Shown: positions 33,621 through 43,579, counted from the first letter of the stretch. The stretch is DNA of 64,000 bases from an uncultured Verrucomicrobiota bacterium (GCA_964431965.1 CAYSLU010000013.1:899-64898); one strand, 5' to 3'. Numbers and translations are program-made. The notes: a model not told the origin generated them from the letters alone.

Positions 33621-35552
33621 TCAACGGGCCGCGCCGTCTGTCAGCCGGTACACCCAGAGGTCCACCTCCGGGAACTGAAGTGCCGGCGCGGCCATGCGGA
33701 GAAAGCCGGGCGAGTCGGAGGGTGCGGGCAGCACCAGGTATCGCACGCCCAGCGCGCGCCACACGTCGGATGTCGGGCTGATCGTGACCGCATAGGCGTC
33801 GAACGCCGTGAGCGCGAACCGGGCTTGCGCGGTTTCGCCCGTGGCGAGCGCCATGTGGCCGTAGCGATTGTAGACGGCGGCGCCGTCGCCGCTCGGATCC
33901 AGGACGCGCATCAGCTCCGGGTCCGGCACCACGCGCGTTCCATTGAGGACCGTGGCGCCCGCCGCCTTCAGGTAGTTGGCGAACAGGTAGTTGCCGTAGA
34001 CGGCCCAGCGGGCGCCGGGCTCGGCGGCGGCCAGGCGGCTCGCCTCCCGGTGCAGGCGGGTCTGGGCGATGGGGGCGAGGCCGCGGGCCAGCGGGTTGAC
34101 GAGGGCGTGGGCGATAAGCGTGGGCGCCACGACGCAGGCGGCCAGGACCGCGATCCGGCCCGACCAGATGGCGTAGCCCGCGCCGCCGGCGGCGAGCGTC
34201 ACGAGTGCGATCCGGCCGCCGGACAGGAGTTCGGGGGCCGACGGCCGGAGGGCGATGCCGACGGCCAGGGCCATCGCGGCCAGCGCGACGCCGGCGGCGA
34301 TGGCCGGCGCATGGGCCCGGCGGCCGGTGCGCCCGGCGGCGCAGACCGTACACCACAGCACGCTGGCCACGCCGAGGCCGAGCATGGCCCGGGCGGAGGG
34401 GACCAGCGCCAGGCCGGTGATCCGGGCGAGCGGGGCGGGCCAGCCGAACACGATCCACGCGAACAGGGCGATGGTGTAGAGCGCGAGGGCCATCTCGATG
34501 GGGCGGACTGGCCGCCGGCGCACAGCGTCCCAGGCCAGTGCGGCGAGGGGGAGGGGAAAGAGGAGGACAAAGCGGCTGGCCTCGCAGACATTCGGATAGG
34601 GACGGGGATGGGCCCCTTCGGACATCCAGACATCGAACAGCCCGCCGAACGCCTGTGCGAGCGTGCTGTCGCCGCCGGCCGCTACGCGGGCGCCGGGGTA
34701 GACGGTGGCGTGGACGAGGGCCAGCGGCTCGGATGCCTGCAGGAAGTAGGACGCCGAAAGCGCCAGCCCGGCGGCGACCGCGGCGGCGGCCGGCAGCCAG
34801 GTCCACCGGCGGGTGCCGCGGGGAATCCGGGCGGCCACGAGGACGACGCACAGCCAGGCCAGCGGGATCTGGAACGGAGGGTAGCAGCTCATCGTGAAGT
34901 TGAGCGCCGCCGCCGCTGCGAGCGCGGCGGCCGCGACGGATCGGGCGGGGCGGCCGGCCGTCAGGGACCCGATGAGGCCGGCGGTCATCAGGGCCCAGGA
35001 GCCGAGCATCTCGGGCAGAGCCGAGGGGGAGGAGAACCACCACTGGACAAACGCCGACCCTGAGATCCAGGCGGCGCCGACGGCTGCGGCGCCGGGGCGG
35101 CCGGTCAGGACGAGCAGCAGGGCGAAGCAGCCGCCGGCGAGGAGGATGGCCTTCATCAGCCAGTAGAACGCGAAGGCCCGCTCCGCGTCCAAGGCAAAGA
35201 ATCCCCAGAACTGCGGGCGGAAGACGGCGCTCCAGTGACGGATCGGCACGTTCATCAGCATCGTGGTCCGGCCGGGGCCCCAGGCGGGATTGACGAGCGG
35301 ACAGGAGGGGCTCCGGTTCAGCTGGCTGAGGATGGCCGGCGTCACGACCGACCACTCGTCGATGCGGATGAATCGCGGCGTGCCAGCGACGACTCCGTCG
35401 TCCGGCGTCCGGCCCGGGAAGCCGGAGTTCCAGATACCGATCGAGGACCCGTGAAGCCGCGCCAGCGTGCCGGCCGCGAGGAGGGCCAGCGCGACGAATC
35501 CGGCGGCGGCAAGCGTCCGGTGGATCGGCGCGGCGGAGTGGACGGTCGACAC
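33621..35552 (-). CDS. large polytopic membrane protein of unknown function
   Basis: The GTG at 35552 has GGGAGG 7 nt upstream. The protein has at least 12 predicted TM helices and is 644 aa long. It is tightly linked to the aldolase upstream and the GDPD downstream. Confidence 0.6.
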   Translation of the reverse strand: MSTVHSAAPIHRTLAAAGFVALALLAAGTLARLHGSSIGIWNSGFPGRTPDDGVVAGTPRFIRIDEWSVVTPAILSQLNRSPSCPLVNPAWGPGRTTMLMNVPIRHWSAVFRPQFWGFFALDAERAFAFYWLMKAILLAGGCFALLLVLTGRPGAAAVGAAWISGSAFVQWWFSSPSALPEMLGSWALMTAGLIGSLTAGRPARSVAAAALAAAAALNFTMSCYPPFQIPLAWLCVVLVAARIPRGTRRWTWLPAAAAVAAGLALSASYFLQASEPLALVHATVYPGARVAAGGDSTLAQAFGGLFDVWMSEGAHPRPYPNVCEASRFVLLFPLPLAALAWDAVRRRPVRPIEMALALYTIALFAWIVFGWPAPLARITGLALVPSARAMLGLGVASVLWCTVCAAGRTGRRAHAPAIAAGVALAAMALAVGIALRPSAPELLSGGRIALVTLAAGGAGYAIWSGRIAVLAACVVAPTLIAHALVNPLARGLAPIAQTRLHREASRLAAAEPGARWAVYGNYLFANYLKAAGATVLNGTRVVPDPELMRVLDPSGDGAAVYNRYGHMALATGETAQARFALTAFDAYAVTISPTSDVWRALGVRYLVLPAPSDSPGFLRMAAPALQFPEVDLWVYRLTDGAAR

Positions 35553-35569
35553 GGCTGACCTCCCGCTAT

Positions 35570-36223
35570 TCAGACCGCCTTGCCGGTGTTCTCGGCCCGC
35601 AGGGACATGAGGTGGGCGGCGTCTGACTTGGAGAGCGGCTGAAGCCGGTCGCCCGTGTCGAGGATGATCCGGCACGCGAGTTCAAAGAAGGCGGCGCGCT
35701 GGAGGGCCTCCTCGTAGTCCTGTCCCACCGTGACCTGCCCGTGGTTTCGCATGACGACGAGGTTGTGGTGGATCACGGAGGCGATCACCGCCTCGGAGAG
35801 GGTGGCCGAGCCGGGGAGGTAGAAGGGCACCGTCCCGACGGGGCCGACATAGTAGGGGATCTCGGGGATGACAAAGTAGTTCGGCGGATCGCCGGCGCGG
35901 CAGGCCAAGGCCGTGGCGCAGGGCGAGTGGAAGTGGAGCACGACGTTCACTTCCGGCCGCTTGCGCATCGCGCCGGAGTGGAAGCCGGCTTCCATGGATG
36001 GGCGGACCGCGCCGAGGGGGGTGGCGTCGGCGATCCGGCAGACGGCGACCTGCTCCGGCGTGATGGTGCCGAGCCAGCTCTGCGTGGCCGAGACGAGCAT
36101 GCGGTCGCCATCGATCCGGAGCGACATGTTGCCGCTGCTGCAGCGGGTGAGCCCGTACTGGTCCACGCGGTGGCACGCCGCCACGAATGCATCGATCACG
36201 CCCGGCGAAACGGCATCGCTCAT
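35570..36223 (-). CDS. class II aldolase/adducin-family protein
   Basis: It has metal-binding His clusters (VVLHFHSP and VIHHNLVVMRNHGQVTVG). AGGGAGGG lies 6 nt upstream of the ATG at 36223 (MSDAVSPG). Confidence 0.8.
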   Translation of the reverse strand: MSDAVSPGVIDAFVAACHRVDQYGLTRCSSGNMSLRIDGDRMLVSATQSWLGTITPEQVAVCRIADATPLGAVRPSMEAGFHSGAMRKRPEVNVVLHFHSPCATALACRAGDPPNYFVIPEIPYYVGPVGTVPFYLPGSATLSEAVIASVIHHNLVVMRNHGQVTVGQDYEEALQRAAFFELACRIILDTGDRLQPLSKSDAAHLMSLRAENTGKAV

Positions 36224-37457: not shown

Positions 37458-37680
37458 GCGGCATCGTCCGTCGTCGAGCTTCTTTCGCGTGAGCGATCAG
37501 TCAGCATGGCATCCGTGCACAGGCCGGTGGTTGAGACATCGGGCTAAAGTAGACTGCACGAACGGGTTTGGCAAGGACTGGAGAACTGGGGTCGTGCACG
37601 TCTCTCTGGACATTCGGCCGCACGGCTGGCTAGAGTGCGAGCGTGCAGCCGGAACGGAAACTGCGAAGACGGAGGATATC

Positions 37681-39765
37681 ATGAGCACATGGTGGAGGGT
37701 GGTGGCCATTGCGATGGCGGCGCTGATGGGCGTGGCTCCGTCAGCCGGGGCGGCCGGCGGCTTGCCGGGCGACGCCGAGGCGGCCACGCACGGCGACGAG
37801 GCGGCCACTCTTCAAGTGGTCAAGGAGACCGTCGAGAGCCAGCCGGACTTCGTGTTCCGGCAGTACAATCTGGCCGTGCTCTCGCACTATTCGTATCTGA
37901 TCGGCAGCGGCGGCGAGGCGATTGTGGTCGACCCGGCGCGGGATATCAGCCGGTACCTCAAGGACGCCGCGGAGCTGAAGCTGAAGATCAAGTACGTCTA
38001 CCTCACGCACTCGCACGCCGACTTCGTCGCCGGCCACATGGAGCTGCGCAAGGCCACCGGCGCGGAGGTGGTGATGAATGAGGACGCGGGCGCGCTCTTC
38101 CCGCACCGGCGCGTGCGCGAGGGCGACGAGATCCGGGTCGGCTCGGTGCGCGGGATCGTGATGGCGACGCCGGGCCACACGCCCGACGGCACGTGCCTGT
38201 GCGTGTTCCGGCCCGCGGATGCGCCGGCGCCGGCGTTCGTCTGCACGGGGGATACGCTGTTCATCGGCAGCGTCGGACGCCCCGACCTGATGGGCGAGGG
38301 CATGAGCGCGGCCACGCTGGCGCGCCAGGCGTTCCGGTCGTGGACCGACAAGCTGGCGAAGCTGCCCGATGCGACGCGGATCTTCCCGGCGCACGGCGCG
38401 GGGTCGCTGTGCGGCGCGCACCTGAGCGACAAGCCCGTGTCGACGATCGGCGAGCAGCGGCGGGAGAACCCGTACCTGCAGCACGCCGGCGTCAACTCGT
38501 TCGTGATGGCCATGATCGACGGCCTGCCGGCCGCGCCCCAGTACTTCGCCCACAACGCGAAGATGAATCACGACGGTCCTCCGCTCGTGGACTGGTCGGA
38601 GAGCCTGCCTCGCCCGCTCAAGCCGACGGTGGTCTCGGAACTGCCCGACATGGGCGCTTGGATTATCGACCTCCGGGACTCGGTGGCCTTCGCCGCCGGC
38701 CATCCGAAGGATGCGATCAACATCGGCATTCGCGGGCGCTTCGAGACGTGGACCGGCATGATGATCCCGTGGGGCGAGCCGATCGTGCTGGCCGGGTCCG
38801 ACGATGAGGTCAAGGAGGCGAGGTTCCGGCTGCACCGGATCGGGTACGACCGGCTGGCGGGCTACCTCGAGGGCGGAGTGGACGCGTGGAAGAAGGAGAA
38901 GCTGCGGATGCCGACGCTGACTCTGCTCCAGCCGGCGGATCTGTACGCACGCATGCGGGCCGGGACAGCCCCGGTGATCGTGGACGTACGCCTGCCGACC
39001 GAGTGGATGGGCCTGCGGATCGGCGATGTGCTGAACATTCCCGTCAACCGGCTGTTCATCGACGGCCGTCGGCTGGACTCCTCGATGCCTGTTCTGACGG
39101 TGTGCAACTCGGCTTATCGGTCGAGCATGGGGGCCTCGGTGCTGCAGAAGATGGGCTTCACGAACCTGTTCAACCTGGCAGGCGGCAGCGAGGCCTGGAT
39201 CGCCGCCGGGCTTCCGACTCTGAGCGCTCCGGCTGCTGGCGGGCCTGCGGCCCCGGCGGGCGCGGCCGCTTCCGGGAGCCGCGTCAATCTGCCGGAAGGA
39301 GTTGGCGCCCCGGATCTGGCGCAGCGGCTGATGGATCTGCCGGGAACGGTCGAGATCGTGGACATCCGGCCGGCTTGGCAGTTCGCCGAGTTCAGCATCC
39401 CGGGGTCCGCCAATGTGTCCGTCGAGCAACTGCTGCTGTCGCCGGTATCGCCCGCACCGGCTGACGCGCGACCGCTGGTCATCGTATCGCGCGACGGCTA
39501 TGTGGCCGCCGCCGCGGGCGGCGTGCTGAGCCAGAGAAGCGGGCGCTCGATCCGGTACCTGGTGGGAGGGGCTCAGCAGTACTACGATCAGGTGATGCGC
39601 CCCGCCGGCATCATGAGCGAGAAGTCGCCCCTGCCGGCCGTCTCCCCGCCGCCGGCGGCCCCGAAGCCCGGCGCCCCTGCTGCGGCGCCCCCGCCCGCGG
39701 CGCCCCCGTCGCCACCGGCTGCATCACCGCCGGTGGCTGCACCGAAGAAAAGCGCGGGCTGCTGA
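37681..39765 (+). CDS. secreted CstB-like persulfide dioxygenase (ETHE1-type MBL domain) fused to rhodanese domains, with a Pro/Ala-rich C-terminal tail
   Basis: The ATG at 37681 has GGAGG 6 nt upstream. A signal peptide is present (MSTWWRVVAIAMAALMGVAPSAGAAGG). The MBL motifs are YLTHSHADFVAGH and GDTLFIGSVGRPDL. Three rhodanese-like modules follow, and only the middle one has an active-site Cys (TVCNSAYRS). The C-terminus is PPAAPKPGAPAAAPPPAAPPSPPAASPPVAAPKKSAGC. Confidence 0.75.
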   Translation: MSTWWRVVAIAMAALMGVAPSAGAAGGLPGDAEAATHGDEAATLQVVKETVESQPDFVFRQYNLAVLSHYSYLIGSGGEAIVVDPARDISRYLKDAAELKLKIKYVYLTHSHADFVAGHMELRKATGAEVVMNEDAGALFPHRRVREGDEIRVGSVRGIVMATPGHTPDGTCLCVFRPADAPAPAFVCTGDTLFIGSVGRPDLMGEGMSAATLARQAFRSWTDKLAKLPDATRIFPAHGAGSLCGAHLSDKPVSTIGEQRRENPYLQHAGVNSFVMAMIDGLPAAPQYFAHNAKMNHDGPPLVDWSESLPRPLKPTVVSELPDMGAWIIDLRDSVAFAAGHPKDAINIGIRGRFETWTGMMIPWGEPIVLAGSDDEVKEARFRLHRIGYDRLAGYLEGGVDAWKKEKLRMPTLTLLQPADLYARMRAGTAPVIVDVRLPTEWMGLRIGDVLNIPVNRLFIDGRRLDSSMPVLTVCNSAYRSSMGASVLQKMGFTNLFNLAGGSEAWIAAGLPTLSAPAAGGPAAPAGAAASGSRVNLPEGVGAPDLAQRLMDLPGTVEIVDIRPAWQFAEFSIPGSANVSVEQLLLSPVSPAPADARPLVIVSRDGYVAAAAGGVLSQRSGRSIRYLVGGAQQYYDQVMRPAGIMSEKSPLPAVSPPPAAPKPGAPAAAPPPAAPPSPPAASPPVAAPKKSAGC

Positions 39766-39778
39766 GGAGGGAAATCTC

Positions 39779-40306
39779 ATGGCTTCCGATAATCGACATG
39801 TGCCGTACTGGTCGCCCTACGCGGCCGGTTTTGGCTTGGGCGTGACGCTGTTGCTGTCGTTCTGGCTGCTGGGCGCCGGGCTGGGGGCGTCGGGCGGCCT
39901 GGCGCGGATGGCCGCATGGGCTCAGCACCTGGTCGCTCCGGCGCGCGTGGAGGCATCGGCCTATTTCGGGCCGTGGTTCGCGGCAGGCGCGCCGCACGTG
40001 CTGGCCTATTACCTGGTATTCATGGCCGTCGGCGTGTTCGTCGGGGGGCTCCTCTCGGCGATCGGGTCGGGGCGCGTCCGCCCGATGGTGGAGCGCGGGC
40101 CGCGCGTGACGCCGGGCGTCCGCCTGGCGCTGGCGCTGGCGGGCGGGGTGATCGTGGGGTTCGCCAGCCGGCTGGCTCGGGGCTGCACCTCGGGGCAGGC
40201 CCTTACGGGAACCGCGATGCTCCTGACGGGAAGCGTGATCTTCCTGGTCTGCATCTTTATCGGCGCCTACCTGACGGCATTCTTTGTGCGGAGGGAATGG
40301 CTGTGA
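39779..40306 (+). CDS. YeeE/YedE-family (Sulf_transp, TsuA-like) sulfur-compound transporter, first half
   Basis: The protein is 175 aa with four TM helices and the conserved LARGCTSGQ cysteine motif. Its last 10 nt overlap the start of the next gene. Confidence 0.8.
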   Translation: MASDNRHVPYWSPYAAGFGLGVTLLLSFWLLGAGLGASGGLARMAAWAQHLVAPARVEASAYFGPWFAAGAPHVLAYYLVFMAVGVFVGGLLSAIGSGRVRPMVERGPRVTPGVRLALALAGGVIVGFASRLARGCTSGQALTGTAMLLTGSVIFLVCIFIGAYLTAFFVRREWL

Positions 40307-42339
40307 GCGGAACCCTTTACTCCCTCGACATGCTGAACACGCCGGTCGGATTCGCCATGGCCGGCCTGATCGGAATCCTGTTCGGCCTGTTCCTCGAGCA
40401 GGCCGGCTTCGGCAGCAGCCGGCGCCTCACGGGCATTTTCTACTTCCGGGACATGGCCGTGCTGAAGGTGATGTTCACGGCGGTGGTGACGGCCATGGTG
40501 GGCTACCCGTATCTGTCGGCGTTCGGCTGGGTGAAGCCGGGACAGCTCTATCTGCTGGACACGTACTGGGGCGCCCAGATCGTGGGCGGGCTCATCTTTG
40601 GCGTCGGCTTTGTGATGGGCGGCTGGTGCCCGGGCACCGCCTTTGTGGGGCTGGCCAGCGCCAAGTGGGATGCCTTGGTGTTCCTGGCTGGCGCCGTGGG
40701 CGGCTCCGTCCTGTTCAGCGAGGTGTATCCGGCGGTCGAGCGGCTGTACAACGGCCAGTGCGCCGGGCCGCTCTTCCTGGCCGACTCGCTTGGCGTCTCG
40801 ACGCCGGCTGTCGTGTTGGGCATGTGCATCGCGGCCGTGCTGGCGTTTGCGGGCGCGACATGGCTGGAGAGCCGGTTCGGCGAGCGTCCCCGGCCCGAGG
40901 CGGGGGAGCGGCTGCGGAACCGGCTGGCTGCGCTGGCGCTGATGGCGCTGGCGGCCGGCACGTTCGCGCTTCCGGCGCCCAGAGCGGCCGGCGGGGGAGA
41001 GGCGACGGCTACCGCGGCGCCGGCCCGCGGGGCGGCAGATGCCGGCCTTCTGGCTGCGGTGGACCGGGGCGAGGATCACGTGGAGCCGCTGGATCTGGCC
41101 GCGCGCATGATGGCCGGGGAGCCCGGCCTGACCGTGGTGGACATCCGGTCGCCTGAAGCGTTCTCCTCGTTTCACCTGCGCGGGGCGGTGAGCATCCCTC
41201 TCGACCGGCTGATGGCCGAGGCGGCGGGGCGGGTGCCGAGGACGGGCACGGTCGTCCTCTACTCAAACGGCACGACGCACGCGGCGCAGGCCTGGATGGC
41301 CCTGCGCCAGGCGGGGTGGACGAACGTGCTCGTGCTGACCGACGGGATTCTCGCGTTCTGGCGCGAGTGCCTGACGCCGCCCTCGCTCGCCGACGTCACC
41401 GACGAGCGGTCGGCGCGCGCGCAGTCCGCGGCATTCGCTGCTCGACGGGCGTGGTTTCTCGCCCCTGCAGCGCCGGCCAAGCCGGCGCCCCAGCCGCCGC
41501 CTCCTCCCGCGCTGGCAGAGCCCGGCCTCGCAGCCCGCGTGGTGTCCACGGACTGGCTGGCCTCCGAGCTCGACGATCCGCGGATCCGCATCGTCGACGC
41601 GCGGGCCAAGAGCACGGCGTATACGACGGCGCACCTTCCCGGCGCCGTGTACCTGGGATACGACGGGGTGCGCGGGACCGTGGAAGGCAGCCCCACGATG
41701 GTGCTTCCGGCCGCCGAGCTGGCCGGAGTCTTCGGTCGGCTGGGGATCGCCACGGGCCACACCGTGATCGTGTACAGCGACACGATTCGCGACGCGACGC
41801 TGGTCGGCATGGCGCTCGCGCGGGTGGGGCATCGCTCGTTCGCGATTCTTCACGGCGGGTACGACAAGTGGGTGGCCGAGAAGCGGCCGGTGACGTCGGC
41901 CATCCCGGTGGTTGCGGCGGCGCGCTACGAGCCGACTCCGGGAGCGGATGCCTTCACGGCTTCGACGGAGGACGTCGCGGCCGCGATGCGGGACGGCCGA
42001 ACGGCGATTCTCGATGTGCGTCCGGCGGAGTTCTTCACCGGGAAGAAGACCGACGAGGCGCGAGCGGGGCACATTCCCGGCGCCGTGAACCGCGAGTTCA
42101 AGATGGACCTGCTTCCGGAGAAGGAGCTGTGGCTGTCGGCGGATCTGATCCGCGCCGCCTACGAGAAGCTGGGCATCCGCGAGGATACGCCCGTGATCGT
42201 GCACTGCCGGACCGGGCACCAGGCGAGCCAGACGTATTTCACCCTGAAGCACCTGCTGGGACTGAAGGACGTCCGCTGGTACGACGGCTCCTGGGCCGTG
42301 TGGGCCGCGCGCCCCGACCTGCCGGTCGCGGGCCCCTGA
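40297..42339 (+). CDS. YeeE/YedE second half fused to three rhodanese domains (a single domain plus a tandem thiosulfate-sulfurtransferase-like pair)
   Basis: The ATG is at 40297 (MAVSGTLY...). The membrane half carries the GGWCPG cysteine motif. Rhodanese 1 has no Cys. Rhodaneses 2 and 3 form a TST-like tandem with the catalytic loop VHCRTGHQAS. The 807-aa track ORF starts earlier in noise. Confidence 0.75.
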   Translation: MAVSGTLYSLDMLNTPVGFAMAGLIGILFGLFLEQAGFGSSRRLTGIFYFRDMAVLKVMFTAVVTAMVGYPYLSAFGWVKPGQLYLLDTYWGAQIVGGLIFGVGFVMGGWCPGTAFVGLASAKWDALVFLAGAVGGSVLFSEVYPAVERLYNGQCAGPLFLADSLGVSTPAVVLGMCIAAVLAFAGATWLESRFGERPRPEAGERLRNRLAALALMALAAGTFALPAPRAAGGGEATATAAPARGAADAGLLAAVDRGEDHVEPLDLAARMMAGEPGLTVVDIRSPEAFSSFHLRGAVSIPLDRLMAEAAGRVPRTGTVVLYSNGTTHAAQAWMALRQAGWTNVLVLTDGILAFWRECLTPPSLADVTDERSARAQSAAFAARRAWFLAPAAPAKPAPQPPPPPALAEPGLAARVVSTDWLASELDDPRIRIVDARAKSTAYTTAHLPGAVYLGYDGVRGTVEGSPTMVLPAAELAGVFGRLGIATGHTVIVYSDTIRDATLVGMALARVGHRSFAILHGGYDKWVAEKRPVTSAIPVVAAARYEPTPGADAFTASTEDVAAAMRDGRTAILDVRPAEFFTGKKTDEARAGHIPGAVNREFKMDLLPEKELWLSADLIRAAYEKLGIREDTPVIVHCRTGHQASQTYFTLKHLLGLKDVRWYDGSWAVWAARPDLPVAGP

Positions 42340-42352
42340 GGGGGGAGATGGC

Positions 42353-43579
42353 ATGCAGCCCGATGACGTTGCTGGACCGCCGCTCCCGGAGCGCCACCCC
42401 GCCGTGCGGGAGAAGGCGCGGATCGTGCGGGTCGAGGTGTCGCCCGCGACGCTGATCCAGATCATCCTCGTCGTGGCCGGCGTGTGGCTGCTGATCCGGC
42501 TTTGGCCGGTCTTCCTCGTTCTGGTCGTCGCGCTCCTCATCGTCGGAACGATGAGTCCGGCGGTCCGGTGGATGGAGGCGCGCCGCGTCAGCCGCGGCCT
42601 GGGGATAGCCGTCGTTTTCAGCATCCTCCTCCTCGTTGCGATTCTCGCCCTGACGCTGACGGTTCCCTCGCTGGTGGTGCAGGTCTCCGAGCTGGTCGAG
42701 AAGGAGCCCGCGTTCCGCGCGCACCTGGCGGACCATCTCGCGCGCTCCAACCTGACCGCGCCGCTGGCGGGCTGGCTGCAGACGGTCACGTACGACGATC
42801 CCCTGAGTGCCGTCAGCGCGTCGGCGTTCGCCTTCCTGCGTCGCATCTTCGAGATCGCCGCATACGGCGCGAGCGCGATCTTCCTCGCGCTGTACGTCAT
42901 GATCGACCGCGACCGGCTTCGCGGCGGGCTGTTCGCGGCCGTTCCGCGGTCGCATCACATCCGCCTCGCGCGTGTCATGATGAACCTGGAGACGATCGTC
43001 GGCGCGTACATCCGGGGGCAGATGATGACCTGCCTGCTCATGTCGGTCTTCGCGTTCATCCTGCTGGTGGCCTGCGGCGTCCCGAACGCGCTGGCGCTGG
43101 CCGTTCTGGCGGGGCTTGTGGATGTCCTGCCGTACGTGGGCGCCCTCCTGGCGATGGGGCCGATGGTCCTTGCGGCGCTGGCGCGCGGCCCGGCCGTCGC
43201 GGCGATCGTCCTGCTGGTCATGTTCGCATACCAGGAGTTCGAGAGCCGCGTGCTGGTTCCCCGAATCTATGGGCGGACGATGAGGCTTCCGTCGTCGGTC
43301 GTGCTCTTCGCGCTTCTGACGGGCGGGATGATGATGGGGGTGCTCGGCGCGCTCCTGGCGCTCCCCGTGGCGGCGACCGTCATGATGCTCATCGAGGAGC
43401 TTCGCGTCGAGTTGCCGGGCCAGCAGGAGCAGGTTGCGGACGTGGAGCAGCGGGTCGGCGACGCGCGCGCGGAGGAAGAGTACGAGCGCCGGACAGAGGG
43501 CGTGCCGGCCGAGCAGGCCGCCGCCATTGCCGTCGAAATGTCAGACGACCGGCGCAAGGAGCATGAAGAGGACCCATGA
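42353..43579 (+). CDS. AI-2E family (PerM/UPF0118) transporter
   Basis: It has eight predicted TM helices in the typical AI-2E topology and an acidic C-terminal tail. Length is 408 aa. Confidence 0.8.
   Translation: MQPDDVAGPPLPERHPAVREKARIVRVEVSPATLIQIILVVAGVWLLIRLWPVFLVLVVALLIVGTMSPAVRWMEARRVSRGLGIAVVFSILLLVAILALTLTVPSLVVQVSELVEKEPAFRAHLADHLARSNLTAPLAGWLQTVTYDDPLSAVSASAFAFLRRIFEIAAYGASAIFLALYVMIDRDRLRGGLFAAVPRSHHIRLARVMMNLETIVGAYIRGQMMTCLLMSVFAFILLVACGVPNALALAVLAGLVDVLPYVGALLAMGPMVLAALARGPAVAAIVLLVMFAYQEFESRVLVPRIYGRTMRLPSSVVLFALLTGGMMMGVLGALLALPVAATVMMLIEELRVELPGQQEQVADVEQRVGDARAEEEYERRTEGVPAEQAAAIAVEMSDDRRKEHEEDP

Follow-up and report, generated by a model that had tools for sequence, protein, structure and literature searches.

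Gene layout of the locus

This report concerns a putative sulfur-transfer cassette of three genes, designated A, B and C, on a contig of an uncultured Verrucomicrobiota bacterium (GCA_964431965.1, CAYSLU010000013.1:899-64898). The whole stretch of DNA that was analysed, 64,000 nt long with a G+C content of ~70%, is referred to as the window, and positions are counted from its first letter. Four co-directional open reading frames (ORFs), A to D, were located between 37681 and 43579, where an earlier reading of the same DNA, made by a model from the sequence alone (the original prediction), had placed four closely spaced or overlapping genes. The domain families named there were all matched by Pfam search (Lactamase_B, Rhodanese, Sulf_transp and AI-2E); the domain matches are very strong and, together with family-wide conservation, lie far above chance. 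The genes, with the evidence used for each, are:

37681–39765, + strand: gene A, predicted exported CstB-type persulfide dioxygenase-sulfurtransferase, 694 aa (Pfam, 3tp9/3r2u matches, Foldseek)
39779–40306, + strand: gene B, PmpA/YedE1-like half channel, 175 aa, four transmembrane segments (TM) (Pfam, NCBIfam, loop charges)
40303–42339, + strand: gene C with its preferred start, 678 aa (GTG start)
42353–43579, + strand: gene D, AI-2E family transporter, 408 aa (Pfam)

A GGAGGA motif lies 6 nt 5′ of the gene A ATG, and the product of gene A is identical to a 694-aa database protein (P0121). The stop codon of A is separated from the start of B, which is preceded by GGAGGG, by 13 nt, and a gap of the same length, 13 nt, lies between the stop of C and the start of D. 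For gene C, the ATG at 40297 (680 aa) had originally been proposed as start. The GTG at 40303, two codons further downstream, is the better choice because GGAGGG is found 7 nt before it, because it overlaps the stop codon of B (TGA 40304–40306) as GTGA, and because the resulting 678 aa are identical to database protein P0001.

Catalytic core of gene A

In the Pfam search of gene A, one Lactamase_B match (E 1.4e-17) and three Rhodanese stretches (E 2.8e-32) were obtained. By sequence, the closest solved structures were 3tp9 (E 1.5e-69) and 3r2u, the CstB of S. aureus (E 3.6e-51), followed by the single-domain persulfide dioxygenases (PDOs) 4ysb and 4chl with E values of 1e-22 to 1e-14 (1.9e-14 for 4chl, ETHE1), while glyoxalase II structures reached 1e-12 or worse and ranked below all PDOs by sequence as well as by fold. 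An AlphaFold2 model of A (mean predicted local distance difference test score, pLDDT, 79) was compared with known structures using Foldseek; TM-scores of 0.81–0.87 were obtained to 3tp9 and 3r2u, and the fold ranking reproduced the sequence ranking (CstB > PDO > glyoxalase II). The domains of the core are:

37849–38580, + strand: metallo-β-lactamase (MBL)/persulfide-dioxygenase domain of A, with the triad H110/H166/D191 and the Cys244-Gly245 loop (3r2u/3tp9 alignment, invariant columns)
38617–39219, + strand: Cys-less rhodanese homology domain of A (residues ~313–405), followed by a catalytic rhodanese (residues ~415–513; C475-NSAYR480, R437)

For CstB, the catalytic residues were described as the Fe(II) triad H56/H119/D145, F148, R154, C201-G202, L205, R370, C408 and R413 (2026 preprint, PMC12934615). 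According to the same source, the CstB-specific loop C201-G202 acts as a built-in glutathione mimic that is self-S-sulfonated, the rhodanese Cys408 sits behind R370 and R413, and CstB-type enzymes are without glutathione-stabilising features. By alignment to 3r2u, the counterparts in A are H110, H166, D191, F194, R200, C244-G245, L248, C475, R437 and R480, with C475 aligned to C408, R480 to R413 and R437 to R370, and all mapped positions are invariant in the A family (50 sequences). The metal motif of A reads HSHADF, i.e. the HxHxDF type shared by CstB and 3tp9, and the Cys-Gly loop reads HGAGSLC244G245AHL. From the alignment, A is thus predicted to possess the His2Asp facial triad of the CstB MBL domain. 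As in CstB, the first rhodanese stretch has no Cys and a later one carries the catalytic Cys with its Arg wall.

The original prediction had described A as an ETHE1-type MBL dioxygenase fused to rhodaneses in CstB architecture. The architecture was recovered in full, while the ETHE1 label has to be dropped in view of HxHxDF and the Cys-Gly loop; a single domain and HxHxDH, by which ETHE1 is recognised together with its glutathione-binding residues, were not found in A. The other identity that had been considered for the MBL domain, a glyoxalase II, was rejected: TIGR03413 scored 72.6 bits against a cut-off of 200.8, the structures concerned held the lowest ranks, and no full HxHxDH is present, so that A ranks with CstB and the PDOs and ahead of glyoxalase II. 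As judged from its sequence, gene A encodes a CstB-type enzyme that is neither of the ETHE1 nor of the glyoxalase II type.

Export signal and cysteine arm of gene A

Outside the catalytic core, four further elements were delimited in gene A:

37681–37752, + strand: predicted Sec signal peptide, residues 1–24, MSTWWRVVAIAMAALMGVAPSAGA, cleavage after AGA (read from the sequence)
37765–37806, + strand: conserved mature N-terminal motif PGDAEAATHGDEAA, residues 29–42 (invariant columns)
39292–39600, + strand: third rhodanese-like domain (Rhd3), residues ~538–640 (third Rhodanese stretch in Pfam)
39601–39762, + strand: Pro/Ala-rich flexible linker leading to C-terminal KKSAGC, with Cys694 as the last residue (termini of homologues)

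The N-terminus consists of MSTWWR, VVAIAMAALMGVA and PSAGA, with AGG after the putative cleavage site, and thereby shows an n-region that is short and basic, a hydrophobic core 13 residues long, and Ala at positions -3 and -1. A core of 13 residues is too short for a membrane anchor. In the AlphaFold2 model, residues 3–17 form a helix that is followed by disorder. For comparison, N-termini of homologues were collected from 62 related loci whose 5′ ends are intact, by reading the frame upstream of the MBL match; a hydrophobic 10-mer was found 2–16 residues before the N-terminal motif in all scorable homologues (57/57), and in some homologues the signal peptide is of a lipobox-like kind instead (L076, L079). 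The signal peptide that had been proposed for A is borne out by these features, and of the two readings of its N-terminus, transmembrane anchor or cleaved signal, the 13-residue core and the AxA pattern favour the latter; the product of gene A is predicted to be exported.

The PGDAEAATHGDEAA region comes directly after the signal peptide; in it, G30, D31, E33, H37, D39, A41 and A42 are invariant (50 sequences). The strict pattern [GKRQ]D[AST]E[AS]A[ST]H was found in 57 of the 62 loci, with near variants in the other five. Across phyla the motif occurs in two forms, GDAEAA[TS]H and KD[ST]ES[AS][ST]H. It is acidic, and the C-terminal tail of the protein is basic.

Rhd3 shares 24% identity (E 6e-07) with the first rhodanese domain of gene C. 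At its catalytic position, Ser is found in the window (VIVSRDG), Asp in 49/58 and Cys in 7/58 homologues. The linker that follows has a median length of 48 aa (range 41–78) and a median Pro+Ala fraction of 0.45, its composition being conserved and its sequence not. The C-terminal end is xAGC in 61 of 62 homologues, the lone exception appearing frameshifted; the consensus terminus is KK(K/R)SAGC, with exact KKKSAGC in 36/58. The C-terminal KKKSAGC arm and the mature N-terminal motif, as well as the TM5-TM6 hairpin of gene C described below, are additions to the original prediction.

Genes B and C as a two-piece channel

Gene B matched Pfam Sulf_transp (E 6e-18) at profile positions 176–310 of 310 and the NCBIfam TsuA profile at positions 248–335. 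Gene C matched Sulf_transp (E 6.9e-14) at positions 4–191, together with three Rhodanese stretches (E 1.5e-48). Four hydrophobic segments are present in B and four in the first 142 residues of C; beyond TM4, two more segments of C (residues 170–188 and 208–226) are joined by an Arg-rich loop, giving six segments family-wide.

40303–40980, + strand: membrane part of gene C, PmpB/YedE2-like half channel TM1-4 plus an extra TM5-TM6 hairpin with an Arg-rich loop predicted to be cytoplasmic

Each half retains one conserved cysteine. Cys136 of B (RGCTSGQ) is invariant in 68/68 homologues and corresponds to the periplasm-facing Cys293 of YeeE, and Cys109 of C (GGWCPGT), invariant in 56/56, corresponds to YeeE Cys91; both positions are consistent with the coordinates of the NCBIfam TsuA profile. 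A counterpart of YeeE Cys22 is absent from C, where the loop reads FGSSRR. In the AlphaFold2 models of A and C, the soluble domains are confident; the half channel in C, with pLDDT values of 44–87, is uninformative.

Half-size proteins belonging to the YeeE/YedE family have been described: PmpA is homologous to the C-terminal half and carries the Cys293 counterpart, PmpB is homologous to the N-terminal half, and a heterodimer was proposed (PMC11582611). YedE1E2, which is orthologous to PmpAB, imports zero-valent sulfur, and both conserved cysteines are required (PMC10812762). In B and C, two adjacent four-TM halves with one conserved Cys each are found. Since B is homologous to the C-terminal and C to the N-terminal half, the genes follow the pmpA-pmpB order, which is permuted relative to full-length YeeE. 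The split TsuA of the original prediction is therefore retained as to the two halves with their conserved cysteines, and not as to a broken TsuA: the arrangement is the known PmpA/PmpB (YedE1/YedE2) form.

A frameshift at 40297–40306 had been considered as the origin of the split between B and C. Two observations exclude it: the gene that comes first is homologous to the C-terminal half, so that the halves stand in permuted order, and the split is conserved, two separate genes being kept in 61/61 loci and the overlap of the B stop with the C start in 63/68.

Rhodanese domains of gene C and their side of the membrane

The soluble part of gene C comprises:

41065–41382, + strand: Rhd1, a Cys-less rhodanese-like domain (Pfam, invariant loop)
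41536–42339, + strand: TST/SseA-like tandem rhodanese with the catalytic loop C635-RTGHQAS (1uar/3hzu matches, Foldseek)

The catalytic position of Rhd1 is occupied by an invariant loop, YSNGxTHxAQA, with Ser in place of Cys (residues 320–330 of C, window 41260–41292). It is followed by a near-invariant Cys356 (FWRECLTPPSL, ~41368), and both Rhd1 and Cys356 are retained in short variants of C with a single rhodanese domain. This retention suggests a binding or docking role for the domain, as opposed to a dead one. The tandem (residues ~412–678) matched 1uar (E 1.3e-41) and 3hzu (E 2.3e-34), and Foldseek gave TM-scores of 0.82–0.91 to two-domain rhodaneses (0.88 to 1uar). With the full model of C only rhodaneses were returned, including three-domain matches to YnjE and EanB. 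C635, R636, T637, G638 and H639 are invariant, and the loop CRTGHQAS is kept in 56/56 homologues. The tandem can be read as an inactive N-terminal and a putatively active C-terminal domain, the latter with a six-residue Cys loop in which, as in TST-type enzymes, the Cys is followed by a basic residue. With a score of 129.9 for NF008557, where the cut-off is 250, it does not count as an SseA equivalog. Pfam, the 1uar match and conservation thus agree with the original assignment of an inactive rhodanese plus a TST-like tandem fused to the second channel half.

For the topology of C, the mean number of Lys and Arg residues was determined over 56 homologues: 0.2 at the N-terminus, 2.6 in loop 1, 0.4 in loop 2, 1.0 in loop 3 (after TM3), 1.6 in loop 4, 3.6 in the TM5-TM6 loop, and 2.2, against 4.7 Asp and Glu, after TM6. 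In B, a central loop with 5.5 Lys and Arg and a basic C-terminus predict N-in/C-in. In YeeE's crystal structure, the N-terminus is outside and the first half (H1–H6) starts and finishes outside; H7 reverses the topology, and the second half starts and finishes inside (PMC7449682). Four loci of Planctomycetia (L058, L062, L064 and L078) have gene C naturally divided behind TM5; there, the rhodanese trio forms a protein of its own, with a basic N-terminus and, as the counterpart of TM6, a hydrophobic anchor at its start. Because of the positive-inside charges, the topology of YeeE and these signal-anchor variants, C is predicted to be N-out with six TM and to carry its rhodaneses outside. B (N-in/C-in) and TM1-4 of C (N-out/C-out) would then be the two inverted halves of a YeeE-type pore, and the added TM5-TM6 hairpin is predicted to take the chain back outside and to tether a YnjE-like rhodanese trio in the periplasm. 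That the soluble domains of the cassette are periplasmic is held with good confidence.

The original prediction had assumed that transported thiosulfate or persulfide is handed directly to the fused rhodaneses. In its full form, this explanation has the split channel import thiosulfate or persulfide to cytoplasmic rhodaneses that receive the cargo directly and replace TsuB/YeeD. TsuA-TsuB is a precedent, since a cytoplasmic TusA-like partner is essential for uptake there (PMC11582611), and the covalent channel-rhodanese fusion in C fits as well. By the charges in the 56 homologues, however, the TM5-TM6 loop lies inside and the rhodaneses are on the outer side; in YeeE, the N-terminal half has both of its ends outside, and C adds two TM to such a half, not one; the separate trio of Planctomycetia has a signal-anchor; and the genetically linked partner A is predicted to be exported. 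Hand-off after transport is unlikely because the rhodaneses of C are predicted on the wrong side for it and because A is exported, and the explanation as a whole is considered very improbable.

Conservation, distribution and variants

At least 120 full-length relatives of gene C (44–78% identity) and at least 120 relatives of gene A (58–68% identity) were found. Scanning one genome per species, 80 related loci were collected from Lentisphaerota/Victivallales, Kiritimatiellia, Verrucomicrobiota, Planctomycetota, Desulfobacterota, Pseudomonadota (including Accumulibacter), Riflebacteria, Wallbacteria, Chlamydiota and one metagenome-assembled genome labelled Bathyarchaeia; the A-B-C cassette is present in at least eight phyla. 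Among the matches, Pontiella sp. (P0401) and Desulfatirhabdium butyrativorans (L056) are candidates for cultured organisms that carry it. Where 2.8 kb or more of sequence was available upstream of C (n = 61 loci), B was found in 61/61 and A, in the same order, in 58/61. All-versus-all clustering of 3,610 ORFs from 77 loci recovered nothing but A, B and C, along with shadows of these genes in antisense or alternate frames; other conserved neighbours (regulators, TusA, DsrE, SQR, TauE) were not obtained, and a TusA-like TsuB/YeeD gene was found neither inside the cassette nor as a conserved neighbour family in these 77 loci. Apparent frameshifts and read-throughs occur in some metagenomic copies, such as a broken A in L072 (5564–7500) and an ORF fusing the A tail to B in P0257; such copies were left out of the counts as likely assembly errors. 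The sequence binned as ‘Candidatus Bathyarchaeia archaeon’ (L057, DATKVG010000102.1) contains a full bacterial-type A-B-C including the signal peptide, which is either a binning error or a case of horizontal transfer.

The order A-B-C that was subjected to the synteny check is thus conserved, and gene D is not part of the conserved set. Gene D clearly belongs to the AI-2E family (AI-2E_transport, PF01594, E 1.1e-49, 169.8 bits against a gathering score of 34.3). A homologue was found by tblastn beside the cassette in 0/80 related loci and was seen only in contigs of the same organism (L081, L082). The view that an AI-2E exporter completes the cluster was consequently abandoned and gene D rejected as a cassette member; it is probably co-transcribed with C here, and is a local passenger outside the conserved cassette.

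Several variants of the cassette were encountered. In a carrier-only variant of Pseudomonadota (L010, L026, L083–L085), A is replaced by a protein of 177–185 aa consisting of a signal peptide, an Rhd3-like domain, a linker and KKSAGC, encoded directly 5′ of B and a full-length C. A search with Rhd3 plus tail among 1.84 billion representatives returned 196 clusters, many of them stand-alone proteins of 170–270 aa with their own signal peptides and the same KKSAGC-type terminus. The PGDAEAATHGDEAA-type motif is also present on some stand-alone carriers without MBL core (P0270, P0263). In a short-C variant (about ten loci), C ends after Rhd1 and Cys356, and A is of full length. Barring one carrier (P0247/L060), all versions retain both channel cysteines, Rhd1 of C, the module of Rhd3, arm and Cys, and one or more catalytic rhodanese cysteines. 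From these variants, the dioxygenase appears dispensable, with carrier and channel as the predicted conserved core.

Three of the carrier-only loci (L083–L085, contigs from a wastewater metagenome; L083:5603–8695) lie within a heavy-metal (Hg/Cu) resistance island, with MerR, MerT, an HMA protein, DUF305, DUF411, an ECF sigma factor, CusRS-like two-component genes and CusF as neighbours.

A role of the cassette in other chalcogen or metal stress (selenite, tellurite, Hg, Cu), with the terminal Cys and the N-terminal Asp/Glu/His motif as metal or selenium ligands, was weighed on this background. It draws on the carrier-B-C set in the resistance island and on two profile matches below cut-off, the selenium protein YedE/FdhT as top NCBIfam match of B (1.2e-08) and the selenite/tellurite-operon rhodanese ExtH for C (6.3e-16). 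Neighbourhoods are not conserved among the 77 loci, however, the flanks of the cassette in the window are unrelated to metals, and the complete CstB catalytic set in A favours persulfide chemistry, so that such a role is regarded as improbable.

Proposed extracytoplasmic sulfur relay

The preferred reading, to which a probability of about 0.5 is given, is that A, B and C form a self-contained system for the extracytoplasmic capture of sulfane sulfur and its relay into a Cys-lined two-piece YeeE-family channel, a persulfide oxidase in the periplasm being an optional part. Thiosulfate or polysulfide would give up its sulfane sulfur, in the form of a cysteine persulfide, to a catalytic rhodanese on the periplasmic side (Cys635 of C and/or Cys475 of A). 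Cys694 on the long arm of A would act as a mobile protein-bound persulfide carrier, comparable to the C-terminal arm of SoxY or to cytoplasmic glutathione; the odds for a carrier role of this residue are put at about even. The arm would then hand the sulfur to the periplasm-facing Cys136 of B, from where it would pass via Cys109 of C to the cytoplasm. This direction is that shown for YedE1E2; net import by the cassette is given a roughly balanced chance. Alternatively, with O2 present, the arm may bring the sulfur to the CstB core of A, where a Cys244 persulfide would be oxidised to the S-sulfonate and thiosulfate freed at Cys475 (two persulfides giving thiosulfate, as in CstB). The arm would thereby stand in for the low-molecular-weight thiol persulfides used by cytoplasmic CstB, and the dioxygenase would be a frequent add-on that clears excess reactive sulfur before it enters the cell.

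There are precedents for parts of such a scheme. Periplasmic PspE makes sulfane sulfur from external thiosulfate by a rhodanese reaction whose product enters the cell by an unknown route (PMC10215317), SoxT was proposed to accept sulfur from the periplasmic carrier SoxYZ (PMC11582611), and a general model has periplasmic sulfurtransferases feeding YeeE/YedE (PMC12142623).

Several points weigh against the relay. The link of B and C to YeeE runs through Pfam and NCBIfam profiles with scores far under the TsuA cut-offs (NF041049, 27.8 bits against 645; NF052577, 26.8–29.4 against 400), and neither phmmer nor a 27-sequence profile gave a direct match of B or of the membrane part of C to YeeE sequences from the PDB. 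The topology of A, B and C was predicted from charge bias, homology and split variants, and transport direction, substrate and the role of the terminal Cys have all been inferred. The arm is disordered in the AlphaFold2 model (pLDDT <50), and the basic KKK beside the terminal Cys would be repelled by the positive mouths of YeeE and of the CstB rhodanese site. The carrier P0247/L060 has no terminal Cys and instead a Cys at the rhodanese catalytic position. Finally, many host lineages are strict anaerobes, in which the O2-dependent CstB reaction would rarely be possible.

The prevalence of anaerobes and microaerophiles among the hosts is, on the other hand, in keeping with the reverse direction of flow. 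Here, a PmpAB-like pore would release cytoplasmic sulfane sulfur, the arm Cys would catch it, and the periplasmic CstB core would oxidise it to thiosulfate, such that O2 chemistry stays out of an oxygen-sensitive cytoplasm. A is the most conserved component across phyla (60–68% identity), and pmpAB/yedE1E2 are often found beside pdo genes in detoxification operons (PMC10812762), both of which would suit detoxification by export. Yet the same study reports that YedE1E2 promoted import, and not export, of zero-valent sulfur (PMC10812762), and the carrier-only variants, without the oxidase, still retain a periplasmic TST-like rhodanese that would be needless for export. Export is accordingly taken as an unlikely alternative to the relay.

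A further explanation assigns the terminal Cys a structural role, e.g. in an intermolecular disulfide by which A would be tethered to the channel or to Cys356 of C, or makes it a regulatory redox switch; the MBL domain may then act without O2, e.g. as an S-sulfocysteine or thiosulfonate hydrolase in the manner of SoxB. The near-invariant periplasmic Cys356, kept even in minimal variants, the oxidising nature of the periplasm and the largely anaerobic hosts are compatible with it. SoxH, an MBL protein of the periplasm that belongs to sox clusters and has no known role, is likewise adduced in its favour. Against it, the long linker of conserved composition but variable sequence suits a mobile arm better than a fixed tether, and both the Fe triad and the Cys-Gly loop, which belong to the O2-dependent mechanism of CstB, are invariant. 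This explanation, too, is given only a small chance. The soxH gene is mentioned in PMC11582611.

Returning to the relay, a more far-reaching proposal is made tentatively, with the balance of probability against it: that the module of signal peptide, rhodanese-like domain, Pro/Ala arm and KKSAGC-COOH represents a new class of periplasmic sulfur carriers, the terminal persulfide of which enters a PmpAB-type pore and passes from Cys to Cys across the membrane, and that in most lineages the arm also feeds an extracytoplasmic PDO. If true, this would be the first genetically hard-wired transmembrane persulfide relay, and the dioxygenase fed by the arm, in place of the low-molecular-weight thiol on which cytoplasmic PDOs depend, would be the first extracytoplasmic one known.

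Surroundings of the cassette in the window

Upstream of gene A, a consensus scan for promoters returned a single site against 0.4 expected, which is to be regarded as a weak lead only:

37607–37636, + strand: sigma-70-like promoter candidate, TGGACA, 18-nt spacer, TAGAGT

No Rfam matches were obtained upstream of or inside the region up to E = 1, and a terminator scan of the region gave a result no better than shuffled sequences. The flanks of the cassette are unrelated to sulfur or metals and encode a class II aldolase, a TIM-barrel protein, a GT2 protein, a BNR protein, UppP and a DUF7657 protein. The last is a large membrane protein at 33621–35675 (− strand) with matches to DUF7657 (1.1e-92) and DUF7654 (1.1e-24); its minus-strand neighbours are a GDPD-family gene, the class II aldolase and a xylose-isomerase-like TIM-barrel gene, which are unrelated to the sulfur cassette.

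Antisense and alternate-frame ORFs of up to 562 aa extend over genes A to D (e.g. 37741–39429 and 41263–42900, both − strand). They reappear as ‘conserved’ shadow clusters in related loci, and are artefacts of the ~70% G+C content, not genes.

Novelty and significance

The literature on DUF6691, fusions of YeeE/YedE with rhodaneses, PDOs of the periplasm and rhodaneses with a C-terminal Cys arm was searched, with few subscription journals covered, and the cassette was not found described there, in line with the original view of an undescribed variant. The cassette is widespread and apparently undescribed. CstB, PmpAB/YedE1E2 and rhodaneses are already known; the new elements, as predicted here, are an extracytoplasmic CstB-type enzyme, rhodaneses tethered outside a PmpB half via a TM hairpin and, above all, the channel-linked module of rhodanese, arm and terminal Cys.

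Bacterial persulfide dioxygenases are treated as cytoplasmic in the literature (PMC11507549, PMC6548844). An exported one would be the first example of its kind and would show a possible working mode where glutathione or CoA is scarce. The passage of sulfane sulfur over the cytoplasmic membrane and the hand-off from periplasmic carriers or rhodaneses to YeeE-family channels have been stated to be unknown (PMC10215317, PMC11582611). The cassette fuses or links all proposed players, i.e. a periplasmic catalytic rhodanese, a mobile Cys carrier, both pore halves and an oxidase, and because of this linkage the hand-off is directly testable with a three-gene construct and a few Cys mutants. Cassette proteins number in the hundreds in metagenomes of Planctomycetes-Verrucomicrobia-Chlamydiae (PVC) bacteria, Desulfobacterota, Pseudomonadota (including Accumulibacter) and candidate phyla; for this reason, the cassette may be a common, overlooked component of sulfur cycling at oxic-anoxic interfaces.

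Comparison with known systems

CstB (S. aureus, 3r2u; relative 3tp9) and gene A share the order of MBL/PDO domain, Cys-less rhodanese homology domain and catalytic rhodanese, as well as the His2Asp triad, HxHxDF, the Cys-Gly loop and the rhodanese Cys with its Arg wall. Unlike CstB, A has a predicted signal peptide, a mature N-terminal motif, a third rhodanese-like domain and a Pro/Ala arm of ~48 aa with a terminal Cys. Whereas CstB is cytoplasmic and belongs to the CstR-regulated cst operon, A is linked to a channel and has no CstR, CstA, SQR or TauE nearby.

PmpA/PmpB, or YedE1/YedE2 (Serratia, Cupriavidus, Sinorhizobium), resemble B and C in consisting of adjacent four-TM halves, C-terminal half first, with one Cys each. 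In contrast to PmpB, C carries two extra TM and ~450 residues, predicted to be periplasmic, that form three rhodanese domains; likewise, a periplasmic location is predicted for the partner enzyme A, unlike the cytoplasmic PDOs that accompany yedE1E2. TsuA/YeeE with TsuB/YeeD belong to the same transporter superfamily and also have a Cys-bearing sulfurtransferase partner encoded beside the channel. TsuA, however, is one chain of nine TM with three conserved cysteines, and B and C are two polypeptides scoring far below its cut-off; the TsuB partner is a small cytoplasmic protein of the TusA fold, and the partners in the cassette are of the rhodanese fold and predicted at the outer face.

The arm of A may be likened to that of SoxYZ, where a near-terminal Cys on a mobile peptide (C-terminal GGCGG arm) carries sulfur adducts between sites in the periplasm. 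A second analogue is the C-terminal Cys tail of adenosine 5′-phosphosulfate and 3′-phosphoadenosine 5′-phosphosulfate (APS/PAPS) reductases, which forms an S-sulfocysteine intermediate. Unlike SoxY, A shows no kinship in sequence or fold, and its Cys is the very last residue, placed after a basic patch and a long Pro/Ala linker on a rhodanese-like domain; no SoxY or SoxZ matches were obtained in Pfam and NCBIfam searches of the cassette proteins, so that the likeness is functional only.

YnjE of E. coli resembles the periplasmic part of C in being exported and in its three rhodanese domains, of which only the last has a catalytic Cys (Foldseek alignment over ~445–470 columns), and PspE of the same species is, like the rhodaneses of the cassette are predicted to be, an exported sulfurtransferase. 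Unlike C, both are soluble and not fused to a channel, and for neither is the route of the sulfur into the cytoplasm known, whereas in the cassette the rhodanese trio is joined covalently to one half of a putative pore.

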